A stretch of DNA of 64,000 nucleotides from a virus. The notes under the pieces were generated by a model. It was not told where the DNA came from. It was given only the letters and a program-made list of their open reading frames with translations, and did no database searches. This document shows, one piece after another, positions 3,065-9,038 of the stretch. Location: positions 1 to 64,000 of the IMG/VR virus record IMGVR_UViG_3300043251_000023; one strand, given 5' to 3'. The number at the start of each line of letters is the position of its first letter. Positions within the stretch are counted from its first letter, which is position 1. Made by a program: the position numbers and the translations under genes.

Positions 3065-3753
3065 TCGATGACGATCGCCTTCCGTGGTTCCATTGCTTCC
3101 CGTCGAAGTGGCTTGATGCTCTCGGCGGTCTGCCGGCAGACCAGAAGCTCGTCTATTCGATCATGCTTTTACGCATCTACGACGCCCGCGGCGCCTGCAT
3201 GGACTCGCTCGACGCGATCGCGACCCGCTGTGGGATCAACAAGAGGCGCACGACCGACGCTTTAGACGCTCTATTCAGAGCCGGAAAATTGGTTCGAATC
3301 GAGGGCGGAATCCATAACCCAAGGGCCATCGAACATATCGAGCGCGGCAATGCCCTCCGGGCGGAGCGCCAAAGGGCCGGCGCGGGAGGCGGCAAGAGGG
3401 CGGCGGAAATTCGCAAGCAAAATCAAACAGGGCCGCCTAGCAAAGCTATAGCTAGAGGCAAGCAGAAAGAGAAAGAGGTAGAAGACTCCTTATTCCCTAA
3501 CGGGAATAAGGCGCCGGTTTTGAAAAACGGAAACACTGAAGAGGCCGATCTATTCCGCCGTGGAAAGGAAATACTCGGCCCAGAAGCGGGCGGTCTTATC
3601 AAAAAGGTTTTGAAAGCCAAAGATGGGAACGTTCCGCAGGCGCGAGCCGCAATCGAAATGGCCGTCGGAAGAAACAATCCGCGCGAATACATCGGCGGCG
3701 TGATCAGAGCCGGTAACAGAACGCACGACGACACTGTGGATGGCCGCCTATGA
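3061..3753 (+). CDS. putative replication initiator (YdaU/DUF1376-like N-terminus)
   Basis: LPWFHCFPSKWL...L...QKLVYSIMLLRIYD N-terminus; located directly before the primase-helicase. Confidence 0.6.
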   Translation: MIDDDRLPWFHCFPSKWLDALGGLPADQKLVYSIMLLRIYDARGACMDSLDAIATRCGINKRRTTDALDALFRAGKLVRIEGGIHNPRAIEHIERGNALRAERQRAGAGGGKRAAEIRKQNQTGPPSKAIARGKQKEKEVEDSLFPNGNKAPVLKNGNTEEADLFRRGKEILGPEAGGLIKKVLKAKDGNVPQARAAIEMAVGRNNPREYIGGVIRAGNRTHDDTVDGRL

Positions 3754-4061
3754 TCACCGCCGGCGAGATTCTGCGTGAGCATCGAATCGTCCTACGAGAT
3801 GAGACGATCGGCCGTCACTACGCGACCTGTCCGCAATGTTCGGCGAAACGGAAGCAGGCACACCGAAAGCTGAAATGCCTCGGCGTGACAATAAACGGCG
3901 ACGGCTTGAACTGGGGATGCAATCACTGTGGCTGGACAGGAGGGGGATTCTATGACCGGAAAAACGTTAGGCGCGCTGGGAGTGGCAGCGTTCGAGCATC
4001 GGGGCATATCTCCGGAAACGGCCGGGCGGTACGGGATATATACCGCGCGCCGGACCGATGA
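3750..4061 (+). CDS. primase zinc-binding domain encoded as a separate ORF
   Basis: CPQCS...KCL.V...WGCNHCGWTG zinc ribbon typical of T7 gp4/Twinkle N-termini. Confidence 0.75.
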   Translation: MITAGEILREHRIVLRDETIGRHYATCPQCSAKRKQAHRKLKCLGVTINGDGLNWGCNHCGWTGGGFYDRKNVRRAGSGSVRASGHISGNGRAVRDIYRAPDR

Positions 4062-5469
4062 TGGTGGTCTTGAACCGCACGAAAAAGGCAATGTCGTCGT
4101 CTTTCCGTTCTCCGACCGAGGCGCGGTCGTCAACGAAAAATATCGCGCGCCGTCGAAGAAGTTTTGGCAGCGCGCCGGCGGCAAGCGAACGTTCTGGAAC
4201 GCCGACGCTTTAGACGATCCGGCACTCGAGGACGGTCGAATGCCGCTGGTGATCACCGAGGGAGAGATCGACGCCCTGTCGGCGATCGAGTGTGGTTTTC
4301 CGCTCACCGTATCGGTTCCGGACGGGGCGCCGGGAGTGCCGGAAGGCGAAGAACCTGAGAACCTCGCGCCGCTCGACCCGAAGGCAGAGGATTCCGGAAA
4401 GTTCGAGTTTCTGTGGAACAACCGCGAGCGACTGGCGCGCGTCAAAAGGTTCGTCCTTGCCGTCGATAACGACGGACCAGGCAGACGATTGGCGGCCGAA
4501 CTCATGCGCCGGCTTTCCGCAGCCCGCTGCTCGTTTGTGATCTATCCGGACGGCTGCAAGGATCTCAACGACGTGCTGACAAAGGGCGGCGCCGAAGAGG
4601 TCGCGCGCGTCATCAATGCGGCTAAACCGTATCCGGTTCGCGGTCTTTATCGACTTTCGGAATTTCCGCAAAACGGCGCGCTGCCGACTTTTAGAACCGG
4701 ATGGTCGACGCTCAACAACAATCTTCGCTTATTCGCTGGCGAGTTCATGGTCGTCACCGGCATTCCTGGACACGGCAAATCGACATGGGTTTTGAACTTG
4801 CTTGCTGACGCCGCCGATCTTCATGGATGGCGTTCGGCGATCTTTTCACCGGAGATGCCGACTGTTCCCCAGTTGCGAGACAAGTTGCGGCGCATCACGC
4901 TTCGAGGTCCGATCGAGGGGTCGAGCCACGATATGATCGCCGAGGCCGACGAATGGATTGAGCGAAATTTCGTCTTCATTGATGTCGACCCGACCGGGAA
5001 GGACGATGAAGAGTATGATCTGGATTGGGTGCTTGATCGCGCGACCGACGCTGTTCTGCGCGATGGCGTCCGTGTGCTGGTGATCGACCCTTGGAACGAG
5101 ATCGAACACGCCAAGCGGCGAGACGAGACGATGACGGATTACATCGGTCGCGCCATCCGCGCGATGAAGCGATTTGCGCGTCTATATGAAGTTGCCGTGA
5201 TCGTGGTCGCTCATCCAACCAAAGACGTCGCCAAGGAGGGAAAAAGCCGGCCGCCGACGCTTTATGACATCGAAGGTTCGGCACACTGGTTCAACAAGTG
5301 TGATCATGGAATCGTCGTCGACTGGCCGGATTCAAACATCGCCGAAAGCGTGATCCGCGTCGCAAAGGTTCGATTCGAGGAAAGCGGCGAACGCGGTCAG
5401 GTGCGGTTAAAGTTTGACAGGTATTCGGGCCGGTATGATCTGTTGATCCGCGAGGAGACGCCGCCATGA
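3952..5469 (+). CDS. TOPRIM primase + SF4 (DnaB/T7 gp4/Twinkle-like) helicase
   Basis: ITEGEIDALS and DNDGPG TOPRIM motifs, KDLND, Walker A TGIPGHGKS, VIDPWNE, VAHP; GGAGG RBS before ATG 3952. Confidence 0.92.
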   Translation: MTGKTLGALGVAAFEHRGISPETAGRYGIYTARRTDDGGLEPHEKGNVVVFPFSDRGAVVNEKYRAPSKKFWQRAGGKRTFWNADALDDPALEDGRMPLVITEGEIDALSAIECGFPLTVSVPDGAPGVPEGEEPENLAPLDPKAEDSGKFEFLWNNRERLARVKRFVLAVDNDGPGRRLAAELMRRLSAARCSFVIYPDGCKDLNDVLTKGGAEEVARVINAAKPYPVRGLYRLSEFPQNGALPTFRTGWSTLNNNLRLFAGEFMVVTGIPGHGKSTWVLNLLADAADLHGWRSAIFSPEMPTVPQLRDKLRRITLRGPIEGSSHDMIAEADEWIERNFVFIDVDPTGKDDEEYDLDWVLDRATDAVLRDGVRVLVIDPWNEIEHAKRRDETMTDYIGRAIRAMKRFARLYEVAVIVVAHPTKDVAKEGKSRPPTLYDIEGSAHWFNKCDHGIVVDWPDSNIAESVIRVAKVRFEESGERGQVRLKFDRYSGRYDLLIREETPP

Positions 5470-5616: not shown

Positions 5617-5835
5617 ATGGTCGCGATCAATGAATCCGTGATCTACAAAAGCATGGCGGGCGAGCCTTGGGATGCGACAGTCGTCCGCGTCGGTCCTCCG
5701 GGATATGTCGACGTCACGCTTTCCGGTCCGTTCCTTCGTGAGCCGTTCGAACTTCACGCCGTTCGGTGGTACGACGATCCGGACGAGCCGAAGTCCGGAG
5801 CGCGGCCATGCGGGAAACAATATTCAGGAAAATAG
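5617..5835 (+). CDS. hypothetical protein
   Basis: 72-aa ORF with GGAG RBS, in operon order. Confidence 0.45.
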   Translation: MVAINESVIYKSMAGEPWDATVVRVGPPGYVDVTLSGPFLREPFELHAVRWYDDPDEPKSGARPCGKQYSGK

Positions 5836-5847
5836 TTTTTCTGGGTC

Positions 5848-5877
5848 TTGACGGCGTTCGCTTAAAACGCTTACATA
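5848..5877 (+). promoter_or_regulatory. putative sigma70 promoter with an inverted repeat in the spacer
   Basis: TTGACG (5848-5853), then AT-rich TTACATAAAA from 5871; GCGTT-N7-AACGC dyad at 5854-5870. Confidence 0.5.
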
Positions 5878-5883
5878 AAATTT

Positions 5884-6096
5884 ATGACCGCAGCAGACGT
5901 GCGGAGAATGTTGCAACGGGCTTGTGAAAGAGCCGGGAGCCAACGCGCATGGGCGCGTGAGCATTCGGTTTCCGTTGTTTACGTCAATGACGTTTTAAGC
6001 GGAAACCGCGAGCCTGGCCCTGCGATTTTACAAGCGTTTGGGCTGGAAGCGGAGCGGCGCACCACATATAGGAAAAAAGGGCAACCAAATGGCTGA
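5884..6096 (+). CDS. Cro/Xre-like helix-turn-helix protein
   Basis: GSQRAWAREHSVSVVYVNDVLSGNREPGPAILQAFGL HTH pattern. Confidence 0.8.
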   Translation: MTAADVRRMLQRACERAGSQRAWAREHSVSVVYVNDVLSGNREPGPAILQAFGLEAERRTTYRKKGQPNG

Positions 6097-6718
6097 GCGC
6101 ACCATCGAGATTCCTGAAATCAAACTAGACCGGATCACCGTCAAGGTCGTTGGCACGTCGCCGCTGCTCACGAATCGGTTCGGCGAAAACGCCATTACGT
6201 CCATCGAAAACAAACAACAGAAAAAGGCCAAGGGCGTGAAGGAGGCGCGCGACCCCCACGCGGAGTTTGTCGAAAAACTGCATGTCATAAAAGCAGGTAA
6301 AAGCGATCTTGATGGCACGTTCGGCTATCCGTCCATCGGCATCAAAAAGTGTCTTGTCGTTGCCGGTGGGCGGTTCGCCGACGAAAAGATGACGCATCTG
6401 CGCGGCGCGATCAACATTCTCGGCAGCCTCATCGAAATCAAATCGCCACCCCCGACCATGCGGACGGACACCGTGCGCCTGCAGGGCGGCGTGACCAGCA
6501 TCGCCTATCGGCCGTCGTTCTGGCCGTGGGAAATGGAAATTCCGGTTGTGTATAACGCAGGCATCATCGGCCCCGCGCAAATCCTCAACCTTTTCCAGAT
6601 TGCCGGTTTTGCGGTAGGATTCGGCGCATGGCGCCCCGAACTTAACGGCGTGTTCGGCCAGTTCGTTTTGAAGGATTCCGCCGAAGTCCAGACGAAAGGA
6701 CGGGCCAAGGCGGGATAA
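6089..6718 (+). CDS. stand-alone RAMP/Cas7-like RNA-binding protein (Vipr-like guide-binding effector)
   Basis: N-terminal strand ITVKVVGTSPLL, YPSIGIKKCL, YRPSF.PWEMEIPV and a C-terminal glycine-rich loop AGFAVGFGAWRPELNGVFGQF; no other cas genes; directly followed by the pentamer array. Confidence 0.8.
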   Translation: MAERTIEIPEIKLDRITVKVVGTSPLLTNRFGENAITSIENKQQKKAKGVKEARDPHAEFVEKLHVIKAGKSDLDGTFGYPSIGIKKCLVVAGGRFADEKMTHLRGAINILGSLIEIKSPPPTMRTDTVRLQGGVTSIAYRPSFWPWEMEIPVVYNAGIIGPAQILNLFQIAGFAVGFGAWRPELNGVFGQFVLKDSAEVQTKGRAKAG

Positions 6719-7251
6719 AACACAAGAGCAGACTCGATTTGCTATGCGTTGAACAGACCTTAAGACAGTCAACGAGCATCTGTAGCGAAAAGAAAACAGG
6801 CGCATAGATCGGAGCGGACTCGACAACACTACACAACAAGAGAAAAGTTTAATCCATTTGCCAATAGAGGAGATTAGCAAACTAAGGACGCGACGAGAAT
6901 CGAGAACACGCGAAATGCTTTGTCCATTTGCTATAAGAAAAGCTGAGAGCAAATTTGCGTAGCCTAGCCTTGACACGCAAAGCATCGACGTGAGAACCGC
7001 TGAAATGAAAAGTTTAATTCCTTTGCCATCTGAATGGAGCCGACACGAGGCGAGGCGCGGAGAAAACCCGTGACGACAAATGAAAAGTTTAAACAATTTG
7101 GGCATTTGATAAGAAAAGCTTAGCTGTGACGACAATGGACAACCGAACAACCGAGAAGAAATGTTTTTGTTTGGCCCTTTATCAAAAGAGCCGATTTGCG
7201 TTGCAGAGACGCGCGTAGAAATGTCGTCACGACAATCGAGATGAAATGTCT
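6715..7251 (+). repeat. array of seven tracts of 5-nt units (NG[A/C] or AC[A/C] triplet + variable NN), mostly separated by conserved NGAAA-WGYTT + ~10-nt ...TTTG linkers
   Basis: by my count 71 of 91 core pentamers have G at position 2, 15 more start AC, and none has G at position 3; phase is unbroken over 6781-7090; linkers AATCCATTTG 6851, TGTCCATTTG 6921, AATTCCTTTG 7016, AAACAATTTG 7091, degenerate at 7167. Confidence 0.92.
6715..7251 (+). ncRNA. putative multi-guide precursor RNA (gapped-code guides) for the adjacent RAMP protein
   Basis: the variable dinucleotides of six tracts decode to conserved transposase or mobile-element protein motifs; transcription and processing are not shown. 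Confidence 0.75.
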
Positions 7252-8307
7252 ATATCGATCAAAGAGTATTTTGCGCTGGCTGGAACGTCGTTCACCAACG
7301 ACGATGCGCGGGTTATCGGCCCGGTTCTCCAAGAGATTGCCACCGATGGTAGCGTGACCGCAGAGGCGGTCGTGCAGGCCGCGCATTCCGCAAATAGCCC
7401 ACTGCGCAGCTATTTCGAGTGGGACGACAAAAAGGCTGCTCACCAATATCGAGTCGGCCAAGCCAACTACATGATAAACGCTGTCCGCGTGCGCTTTGTC
7501 AGCGCCGGCAAGGAATATGCGACGCGCGCTTATCGGGTTGTCACCAAGCAGTACGAAGGCGACGCGGCCGGATGGGATGAAGACGAGCGATCCGTCGAAA
7601 TCGTGCGGTCGCCGAACGATGAAATCTTGGCCGCGCTGCGGGAGGTTGATGCGTGGCGCGTCAAATATGCTCACCTTTCCACCTTCCAGAATGCCAAATC
7701 GTTTTTGGTGCCGATCTTCAACCAGATTGCCGAGTTCCGCGCGGATTTGGCTGGCAAAGAGGCTATGCCCATAGACGGGGCGCTCGGCGAGCTTACCCAA
7801 TGGGTTCAAAAATATGGCGACGCCGATGCCGTGTCCGCCTCTGCTCTCCTTGGCGAGCACATTCACTACATGGTGGAGGCGATCAACGAGTCCTGGGAAA
7901 ACTTTGGACGCTTCAAGCATGATCCGGCATTGCGTCGGTCTCTGGTGGAGGAAGAAAACGAGGAATTGCGCGAGCGCGTCCGGATTTTGGAGGAGATGTT
8001 AAACGGGAAGGAAAGTCTGCCGCCGGAATTGAGGTTGACCGCAAGCGAGGAGCGCGTCGTGTCAGCCCTGCTGTCGCGAGACGTTATGACCAAAGAGGCC
8101 ATTTCGATGGCGCTCTATTCCGACCGCCCCGATGTTGCGCCAGAATTAAAAATTGTCGACGTATTCGTGTGCAAAATCAGAGCGAAGATTGAATCGCACG
8201 GGTTGAAAATCGAAACGCATTGGGGACGCGGCTATTCGATGCCGGCGGAGAGTAAGCAAGAGCTGCGCGGCATGATCGCCGCGCGCAAAGAGGCCGCAGC
8301 GGCATGA
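7246..8307 (+). CDS. RAMP-associated partner domain fused to an OmpR/PhoB (CtrA-like) winged-helix DNA-binding domain
   Basis: N-terminal VTAEAVVQAA...SPLRSYFEWDDKKAAHQYR motif; C-terminal LTASE...LYSDRPDVAPELKIVDVFVCKIRAKI...IETHWGRGY. Confidence 0.75.
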   Translation: MSISIKEYFALAGTSFTNDDARVIGPVLQEIATDGSVTAEAVVQAAHSANSPLRSYFEWDDKKAAHQYRVGQANYMINAVRVRFVSAGKEYATRAYRVVTKQYEGDAAGWDEDERSVEIVRSPNDEILAALREVDAWRVKYAHLSTFQNAKSFLVPIFNQIAEFRADLAGKEAMPIDGALGELTQWVQKYGDADAVSASALLGEHIHYMVEAINESWENFGRFKHDPALRRSLVEEENEELRERVRILEEMLNGKESLPPELRLTASEERVVSALLSRDVMTKEAISMALYSDRPDVAPELKIVDVFVCKIRAKIESHGLKIETHWGRGYSMPAESKQELRGMIAARKEAAAA

Positions 8308-9038
8308 AACCTTTGCGTCGATTTGCAGATCATGGCGACGCCGGCGCGCCTTACTCACTGGCCCCGTCGCATATCGCCGCGCGGCTTGGCACAAGCCTTT
8401 ATCGCGAAGGGCGCCTAGGCTTCCCCAAGGGCAAAACGCTCCTAACCAGCGGCCATAACAATCGCAAGATCGGCGCCGTCATCCAAAAGGGTAGATGGAA
8501 GGGCTACCCGGTCTTTACCTTGACCCTGGAGGAACGCGCCACCTGTCCGCGCTCATGCGCGCATTGGCTCGATTGCTACGGTAACAAGATGAACTGGCCT
8601 ACTCGATGGATGAATGACGCGGACCTGATACCGACAATCGGTAGGAACCTATCGGATTTATCGAGAAACGTCCCGAATTTCGTTATCCGGCTTCATGTCC
8701 TTGGCGACTTTTATTCAGTCGCCTACGTCGAGCAATGGGCGCGATGGCTCGATGAATTTTCCGGCTTGCACGTCTACGGCTACACGGCTTGGCAGCCGGA
8801 TACTGCGATCGGTCGCACCGTCGCCGCACTCGCGGAAGCCCGCTGGGATCGTTTTGCGGTTCGCACGTCGAACGGCGTCGTGGCCGAACGCACGACTGCC
8901 ACGATCTACGAGGCCAACGCCAGCGGCCAAATAAATGGCGGCACGGTCTGTCCGGTACAGACAGGAAAAACCGAATGTTGCGCGACGTGTGCTTTATGCT
9001 GGCAGACGCAGAAGCGCATCATCTTCCTGGCGCACTAG
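8304..9038 (+). CDS. GP88-like Cys-rich phage protein
   Basis: TCPRSCAHWLDCY, IRLHVLGDFYS, C-terminal CPVQ...CCATCALCW. Confidence 0.6.
   Translation: MKPLRRFADHGDAGAPYSLAPSHIAARLGTSLYREGRLGFPKGKTLLTSGHNNRKIGAVIQKGRWKGYPVFTLTLEERATCPRSCAHWLDCYGNKMNWPTRWMNDADLIPTIGRNLSDLSRNVPNFVIRLHVLGDFYSVAYVEQWARWLDEFSGLHVYGYTAWQPDTAIGRTVAALAEARWDRFAVRTSNGVVAERTTATIYEANASGQINGGTVCPVQTGKTECCATCALCWQTQKRIIFLAH

Follow-up and report, generated by a model that had tools for sequence, protein, structure and literature searches.

The locus described here raises the question of why a phage should carry, overlapping the end of one of its genes, a series of pentamers whose last two bases spell out, in antisense, a motif of the IS1595 transposase family. 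The series (6715-6779) belongs to a 527-base spacer (6719-7245) in the window, by which we mean the whole stretch of 64,000 nucleotides that was analysed, corresponding to the first 64 kb of the single-contig virus record IMGVR_UViG_3300043251_000023 (73,543 bases, with direct terminal repeats and rated 100% complete). An earlier note on this DNA had proposed that the tract is a gapped guide with a series of 13 NN pairs, that it begins inside the stop codon of a RAMP gene, and that it decodes to the helix-turn-helix (HTH) of IS1595-family transposases. On the evidence of the sequence anatomy, the fold and homologs of the protein, controlled target matching and conservation among relatives, we consider it very likely that positions 6089-8307 are a VIPR locus (a vipr gene, a vrRNA array and a candidate accessory gene with a winged helix) belonging to a soil phage with a complete genome of 73.5 kb, and that 6715-6779 is the first guide of that array, directed against IS1595. 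The kind of system is already known from preprints of 2026, and the locus is a further member of it; what look new are the choice of a transposase as target, a repeat of NGA instead of GGY, and corresponding changes at the residues that contact the first G (G1) of the repeat.

VIPR, for Viral Interference Programmable Repeat, denotes a phage-borne RAMP protein, Vipr, together with its vrRNAs (10.64898/2026.04.26.720920). Such systems, described in 2026, have been experimentally characterised in enterobacterial and Pseudomonas systems. A vrRNA is described there as 9-16 pentamers (GGY/NN) plus a 3' tail, and its NN dinucleotides pair with double-stranded DNA under a "1 nt skip rule", the skipped base usually being the wobble position. 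Targets lie on either DNA strand and the outcome is transcriptional silencing of rival elements, with a target defined by at least 80% NN match and no self-target at that level (10.64898/2026.04.26.720920). The same source distinguishes seven VIPR types, describes DNA-binding vap genes (vap1-6), and mentions alternative repeats (NNNGG, YNNNG and NNNNG) as well as, in the legend of its fig. S18, "staggered arrays" with a 1-nucleotide overlap.

A pentamer array with two variable bases per repeat

The argument turns on three features.

6089-6718, plus strand: vipr (Cas7-like RAMP), 209 amino acids from the ATG at 6089, with a longer open reading frame (ORF) of 226 amino acids from the TTG at 6038
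6715-6779, plus strand: candidate vrRNA guide 1, 13 pentamers N-G-A-N-N, the NN being complementary to the coding strand of IS1595 transposases, codons [IM]RTLGVTYKSAWF
6776-6840, plus strand: candidate vrRNA guide 2, 13 pentamers shifted by 1 nucleotide relative to guide 1, the NN being complementary to the template strand

Guide 1 consists of the pentamers ATAAA ACACA AGAGC AGACT CGATT TGCTA TGCGT TGAAC AGACC TTAAG ACAGT CAACG AGCAT, a number inside the published range of 9-16. Bases 4-5 of these pentamers are AA CA GC CT TT TA GT AC CC AG GT CG AT, with the reverse complement AT CG AC CT GG GT AC TA AA AG GC TG TT, which as codon positions 1-2 (antisense) stands for [IM]RTLGVT[Y*][KN][SR]A[CW*][FL]. 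The arithmetic of the earlier note is thus exact, and the start that it gave is also right: the longer vipr ORF (6038-6718) ends in a TAA stop at 6716-6718 that the first pentamer of guide 1 overlaps. At the other end, the NN series of guides 1 and 2 overlap by 1 nucleotide (T6779).

The period of 5 extends through the spacer, where base identity at lag 5 is 0.38 versus about 0.21-0.30 at neighbouring lags; in four related phage loci the lag-5 value is 0.35-0.39. Within the 73.5-kb genome the strong period-5 signal is limited to about 6600-7100, and weaker peaks near 100, 20430 and 72930 of the genome were inspected and are not pentamer arrays. Of the window's 66 pentamers, 47 have G in slot 2 (0.82 bits) and 49 have A in slot 3, where C also occurs (1.04 bits); the NN slots carry 0.05-0.06 bits. 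Slot 1, which corresponds to G1, is not conserved, being G in 5 of the 66. The repeat consensus of the window is N-G-A instead of G-G-Y.

The spacer contains more AT and more purine than its surroundings (GC 0.44-0.50, AT skew up to +0.33). One minus-strand frame (6125-7150) is free of stops across the whole spacer, giving an ORF of 341 amino acids, and the other two minus frames have 7-8 stops; it was rejected as a gene because the frame is not open in the related contig L001, and it is probably a by-product of the purine-rich composition of the pentamers. Other candidates were dropped before the Vipr homology was found, namely TRAP-like or Hfq-like periodic sites, replication iterons and small ORFs from repeated GAAATG. 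An exotic translation in steps of 5 nucleotides was also excluded, as the third base of the pentamer gives stops (TAA, TGA, TAG) where Y, W and K would be expected.

Target matching of guides 1 and 2

The core of guide 1 was searched as a pattern of 10 gapped codons, CTNGGNGTNACNTANAANASNGCNTGNTT, which matches at least 120 stretches in bacterial genome contigs (one genome per species) versus the roughly 2 chance matches expected, by our own arithmetic, at equal base frequencies; a further 57 stretches match in viral contigs. All 122 of the matches listed, in 120 genome stretches, are in frame, one of them being truncated by the end of its locus. The genome matches sit in ...HR[MT]LGVTYK[TS]AWFMAHRIREAM with the skipped base at the wobble position, and their wider context is ...KKG.S..Q..R.LGVTYK[TS]AW[FL]M.HRIREAM, in ORFs of up to about 350 amino acids. 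In all five of the ORFs tested (L014, L015, L076, L032 and L156), both Zn_ribbon_IS1595 (PF12760) and DDE_Tnp_IS1595 (PF12762) score above their cut-offs, which agrees with the family named in the earlier note; the other target ORFs are assigned to IS1595 from motif context alone. The gapped form suggested for the guide holds up as well.

Near-perfect matches in IS1595 transposase genes, on which the earlier note had made its claim depend, were readily found. Over the full 13 codons the best site agrees at 25 of 26 bases (L099, MRSLGVTYKSAWF), three more loci agree at 24 of 26 (L093, L128 and L057), and the exact 12-codon string RTLGVTYKSAWF occurs in three metagenome contigs, within IS1595-type ORFs. 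In the controls, the core pattern read backwards gave 0 matches in viral contigs versus the 57 forward, two other 20-base gapped patterns taken from the same spacer likewise gave 0 in viral contigs, and out-of-phase dinucleotide series gave no comparable matches. The matches support the reading of guide 1 as complementary to the region that encodes the HTH of IS1595-family transposases.

Guide 2 provides a match that is independent of the pattern used to fetch the loci. Its NN series, read in sense, is S[SR][KN][KN]G[IM]SAL[HQ]L[HQ][SR], which is the SSKKGMSA.QL.R stretch found directly before LGVTYK in the same proteins. Among guide-2 sites with at most 8 mismatches, 142 of 143 lie exactly 33 nucleotides upstream of the guide-1 site. 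At a level of at least 80% NN there were 67 matches with a skip of 1 nucleotide and 0 with skips of 0, 2 or 3, and none of 200 permutations of the dinucleotide order matched.

Both guides thus have natural targets at the published level of at least 80% NN, with best matches of 25/26 (96%) for guide 1 and 24/26 for guide 2. The best joint targets of the two are L156 and L198, both viral contigs, at 23/26 and 24/26. No self-target was found: in the genome of the phage itself, even the nearest site differs at 9-10 of the 26 bases, and no IS1595 DDE domain is present there. Target loci from different genomes share, for the most part, no more than about 1.0-1.2 kb of DNA around the ORF, a pattern that a compact insertion sequence (IS) would produce. 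In L156 the transposase gene lies about 1.2 kb from a gene for a terminase large subunit, so that IS1595 elements do sit in phage or prophage DNA.

Two of the target loci, L017 and L068 from Hoeflea genomes, each carry the target transposase twice, arranged head to head within about 1 kb.

The Vipr-like protein and a candidate accessory gene

The protein encoded by 6089-6718 belongs to no Pfam family and falls into phrog_4652, of unknown function; its relatives start at MAERT, to be compared with the ATG start at 6089. A profile of 33 homologs matches the SUSP1 Vipr protein (PDB 36pp_D) with E=3e-10, and the single sequence does so with E=7e-4, the alignment spanning YRP (thumb Arg) and G.G.WRP (G-loop). 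An AlphaFold2 model has a pLDDT of 84, and the top Foldseek matches to this model are Csm3, Cmr4 and Cas7-11, with probability 1.00 and TM of about 0.4-0.54. The RAMP label given to this gene in the earlier note is borne out by both lines of comparison, and on sequence and predicted structure the protein has the makeup of a minimal RAMP of the VIPR type, comprising RRM core, G-loop and thumb.

Downstream of the array lies a candidate VIPR accessory gene.

7246-8307, plus strand: candidate vipr-accessory (vap-like) gene, 353 amino acids, with a conserved N-terminal domain and a C-terminal winged helix

The C-terminal part of its product matches Trans_reg_C (E=2e-8), the protein falls into phrog_15946, and no relative was found among solved structures. 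Of the 12 loci fetched through Vipr, 10 carry a homolog of the protein's N-terminal part downstream of vipr, and of the 8 loci fetched through the accessory protein, 6 have a vipr homolog upstream of the accessory gene. The order of vipr, array and putative DNA-binding accessory gene is kept across related loci and agrees with the arrangement given in 10.64898/2026.04.26.720920; this gene is likely to be a VIPR accessory gene, judging by its domain content and neighbourhood.

Related loci and a possible covariation of protein and RNA

A homologous spacer is present in the IMG/VR contigs L001, L010, L011 and L012. Across the window, L001 and L010, no part of the spacer is better conserved than guide 1, which reads [Y]R[DE]LGVTYKTAWF in L001 and [HQ]RALGVTYKTAWF in L010. 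Since these variants occur in real transposases (for example LHRELGVTYKTAWF and IHRALGVTYKTAWF), the guides differ at a residue that is variable in the target family. Both relatives likewise have a second tract that abuts guide 1 in a shifted phase, no tail lying between the two. This second tract (2621-2670 in L001, 3695-3750 in L010) is a different guide from that of the window, K[GT]KP[CW][FL]KRGT, suggesting exchange or divergence of the second guide. The NN bases of this tract are kept and its constant slots vary, and no target for it was found among the loci compared. An off-phase match of L010 to "IFHDEDAA" stems from constant slots (GA/CA/GC) and was set aside as an effect of composition.

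Compared with L001, the window has at 7026-7100 an extra unit of about 75 nucleotides, made up of a tract and a tail motif, so the number of array units varies between close relatives. At 7103-7160, the two agree in all 12 NN dinucleotides and differ at 4 of the 36 bases in the constant slots.

Eight homologs of the vipr protein at a greater distance (37-41% identity) all have a strong period-5 array nearby. In L140 the array is built from plain GGC-NN pentamers, about 12-14 to a unit, with 3-4 bases between units. Two GGC-NN arrays (3078-3400 and 3964-4370) flank a vap-like gene in this locus, and their units mostly end in ..AG.

The published structure bears on the difference in repeats. Each repeat is bound by one Vipr protomer, and the target forms part of an R-loop triplex; in SUSP1 Vipr, the residues H17 and D177 recognise G1, R138 and W178 recognise the second G (G2), and the pocket for Y3 sterically excludes purines (10.64898/2026.04.26.720927). 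In the numbering of our 210-residue query, the clade of the window keeps the equivalents of the G2 contacts, R142 and W182, and has N30 and A181 at the positions of the G1 contacts in 5 of 5 loci. Among distant relatives, the H17 position is H in 10 of 10 and the D177 position is D or E in all 8 that are readable. The relatives with H and D/E have GG repeats, and the repeats of the window's clade have lost G1. This pattern is suggestive of covariation between protein and RNA, with N and A at the G1-contact positions paralleling the loss of G1.

The downstream tracts

Beyond guide 2, the array continues as follows.

6822-6860, plus strand: candidate vrRNA 3' tail, the first copy of a conserved repeat placed after a tract, with a core of about GAAAAGTTTAATCCATTTGCC
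6861-6920, plus strand: tract 3, about 10-11 pentamers in the same phase, NN AT GG TT AA AA CG CG AT GA CG AA
6931-7010, plus strand: tract 4, 14-16 pentamers, whose NN pairs (6934-7000) read in sense as YK[CW]AFVLLHK[IM]REA, resembling the HTH of a second IS1595 subfamily
7026-7085, plus strand: tract 5, 12 pentamers, NN TC AT GC CA GG GG GG AA CG CG AA AA
7103-7245, plus strand: two more runs of pentamers in phase, separated by a degenerate tail-like motif and almost the same in L001

The tail-like repeat is 39 nucleotides long and occurs in 4 copies (6822, 6892, 6987 and 7062) that are 64-74% identical to the reference copy. Tract 4 agrees with 26 of the 28 bases of YKSAFVLLHKLREA in 1 of 401 sampled genomes, the backwards control giving 0, and none of 5 genomes known to carry the first IS1595 subfamily matched. 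The ORF at this site (L145) reads, by its sequence, as an IS1595-type transposase of a second subfamily.

Comparison with described systems

The locus resembles the type II VIPR of SUSP1 and of a P. fulva prophage, in several respects: it is phage-borne and consists of a small RAMP gene with intergenic pentamer-repeat arrays; its NN matching to targets skips 1 nucleotide at the wobble position, on either strand and with no self-target; and it has a gene for a likely DNA-binding accessory protein beside vipr. The G2-contact residues of SUSP1 Vipr (R138 and W178) are also conserved here in their equivalents. Among the differences, the sequence similarity to SUSP1 Vipr is confined to the C-terminal 60 residues, and an N-G-A repeat with N/A at the G1 contacts takes the place of G-G-Y with H/D. 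The tail sequence also differs from that of type II systems and has no demonstrable fold, with guide 1 tail-less, and the target is a transposase, whereas the targets described for type II are a satellite, a prophage regulator or another VIPR.

Two of the published variants share features with the locus. As in the NNNNG variant, the constant triplet is well conserved here in its second G only, and as in the staggered arrays (fig. S18 legend), guides 1 and 2 abut, with NN series that overlap by 1 nucleotide. The NNNGG, YNNNG and NNNNG variants were compared by description, since the preprint's main text gives no sequences (664-667 representative loci).

With the Cas7 backbones of Class 1 CRISPR systems (Csm3, Cmr4, Cas7-11) the shared features are the fold, the periodic binding of a guide RNA and base flipping induced by the thumb, but the period there is 6 with 5 pairing bases, versus 5 with 2 in VIPR. 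The solo vrRNAs of SUSP1 satellites (10.64898/2026.10.15.759431) offer a parallel in that a vrRNA is directed against a multi-copy element of the host genome (REP); those are described as orphan decoys against phage VIPR, whereas the guides here lie within the vipr locus of the phage itself. Transposase targets are not named in the main texts of 10.64898/2026.04.26.720920 and 10.64898/2026.10.15.759431, and a literature search combining IS1595, guide RNA and phage found no paper.

Genomic surroundings

Upstream of vipr lie genes for a DUF1376 primosomal protein, a primase/helicase and an MT-A70 methylase. Among the ORFs examined around the locus there were no other cas genes and no adaptation genes, nor were CRISPR repeats found there. 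A blastn search of 6000-8400 against the "phages" collection gave no match, and the 4 matches in Rfam, all with E>3, came nowhere close to its thresholds. A scan of 5800-7400 for promoters and terminators found 0 promoter-like sites and one terminator-like site, on the minus strand and inside the gene region. Elsewhere on the phage, beyond the window (L206, genome 68573-70346), there are an Erf-family annealing protein and a YqaJ-like exonuclease; none of the few phage ORFs tested for it is an integrase.

Points against the reading and alternative explanations

Several observations weigh against the reading as an IS1595-directed VIPR array. One of them concerns the tail. Guide 1 has no 3' tail of its own but runs directly into guide 2, so that the structured, invariable tail of the published systems is missing from it; a conserved motif, the four-copy repeat, follows the later tracts, and these candidate tails show no significant fold (z -1.6 to +0.7). 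It could be argued from this that guide 1, lying at the 5' edge of the array, is a relic that has lost its function or is decaying, unable to be processed or capped, and that guide 2 and the later, tailed units are the active ones, particularly as no tail motif lies between guides 1 and 2 and published type II vrRNAs all carry an invariable 3' tail that caps the filament (10.64898/2026.04.26.720920, 10.64898/2026.04.26.720927). We think this unlikely. Guide 1 is the very part of the spacer that is most conserved across the window, L001 and L010, and the NN differences between these phages lead to variants found in real transposases, which points to selection on the reading itself. Tail-less abutting vrRNAs are, moreover, reported in the fig. 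S18 legend for some other VIPR types (10.64898/2026.04.26.720920), so the lack of a tail does not exclude VIPR membership. The earlier note had ascribed the tail-less junction to linker loss or a distinct insertion event, which finds no support in that form: the same junction is common to the window, L001 and L010 and is therefore not a recent loss.

A second set of points concerns the two guides taken together. They disagree in two overlapping codons, meaning that they cover in effect 12 + 12 contiguous codons on opposite strands, and no gene in hand matches both perfectly. The guide-1 mismatch counts (at most 5 mismatches at 177 of 179 sites) are partly circular, because the loci were fetched with a pattern derived from guide 1. 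The polarity of the guides also bears on whether they might act on RNA, guide 1 being antisense to the transposase mRNA and blocking its translation or stability. Guide 1 is indeed complementary to the coding strand and hence to the mRNA, and a Vipr-vrRNA complex pairs with single-stranded RNA in vitro (10.64898/2026.04.26.720927); guide 2 and tract 4, however, are sense-oriented and unable to pair with mRNA. On single-stranded RNA, besides, the reported filaments were mostly incomplete and lacked the triplex, and either DNA strand could be targeted for silencing (10.64898/2026.04.26.720920, 10.64898/2026.04.26.720927). Action on RNA accordingly seems to us very improbable.

The other points that count against the VIPR reading are more scattered. 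Exact patterns from the remaining tracts found no targets: 10 codons each from tracts 3 and 5 gave 0 in viral contigs, and 11 codons from the first run of 7103-7245 (7103-7160) gave 0 in metagenome contigs; these scans were exact-match only, and targets with mismatches would escape them. No terminal inverted repeats were found around the target ORF in L027 and L156 (seed 8, length 14), which leaves the targets putative as active ISs. The proposed covariation rests on two clades and so amounts to one independent contrast, and slot 3 of the repeat is A in 74%, a purine, versus the purine-excluding pocket of the published structure, implying that the details of RNA binding must differ from those of SUSP1. 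A search of sequencing runs listed no RNA sequencing run with this DNA.

That the spacer is an ordinary regulatory or replication element (iterons, or the leader of the winged-helix gene) and the IS1595 reading a coincidence can be set aside almost entirely, for although the spacer lies in the replication module next to the primase/helicase and carries 4 copies of a 39-nucleotide repeat ahead of a gene for a DNA-binding protein, 24-25 of 26 bases match in the exact NN phase, a second tract falls on the adjoining codons at a fixed 33-nucleotide offset and a third on another subfamily, all controls gave 0 matches, and the adjacent gene encodes a Vipr homolog.

Proposed mechanism

The mechanism established in the preprints for the SUSP1 and P. 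fulva systems is carried over here to the VIPR locus of the window, and we infer from it that the guides would be transcribed and processed, loaded onto Vipr and bound to DNA, with silencing and a benefit to the phage as the result. One Vipr protomer would occupy each pentamer, hiding the three constant bases (N-G-A) and presenting the two variable ones, and the 13 NN pairs would bind double-stranded DNA with every third target base skipped. The complex of Vipr and guide would then form an R-loop triplex that blocks transcription.

Guide 1 would pair with the coding strand of IS1595 transposase genes over the codons RTLGVTYKSAWF, and because the skipped base is the wobble position, synonymous variation among IS copies would not allow escape. 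Guide 2 would pair with the template strand, along the 13 codons that directly precede the guide-1 site. The two together would span 24 contiguous HTH codons, and the tract 4 guide may address the equivalent region in the second IS1595 subfamily. The likely outcome, by analogy with the published systems, is silencing of the IS1595 transposases of the host or of rival phages and prophages.

Implications

We suggest, as a possibility that still falls somewhat short of probable, that in this phage clade VIPR serves as an anti-transposon weapon with a re-tuned protein-RNA code, in which H has changed to N and D to A, recognition of G1 is lost and a purine is accepted at position 3. If so, two abutting guides of opposite polarity would clamp an unbroken run of 24 codons in the most conserved part of IS1595 transposases, and the whole IS family would be silenced regardless of synonymous drift, with a third guide covering the second subfamily. 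The possible benefits are that ISs would be kept out of the phage genome or that rival prophages bearing them would be disarmed.

The locus is a clean natural example of VIPR from a distant clade of soil phages, and the published 1-nucleotide-skip code predicts its target unambiguously, which lends independent support to the generality of that code. To what is described of VIPR it would add a gene of a transposable element as a natural target, matched by three guides, and paired guides on opposite strands that meet at one codon. The N-G-A repeat, which appears to co-vary with the loss of the two residues that read G1, may further provide a handle on how Vipr specifies its repeat.

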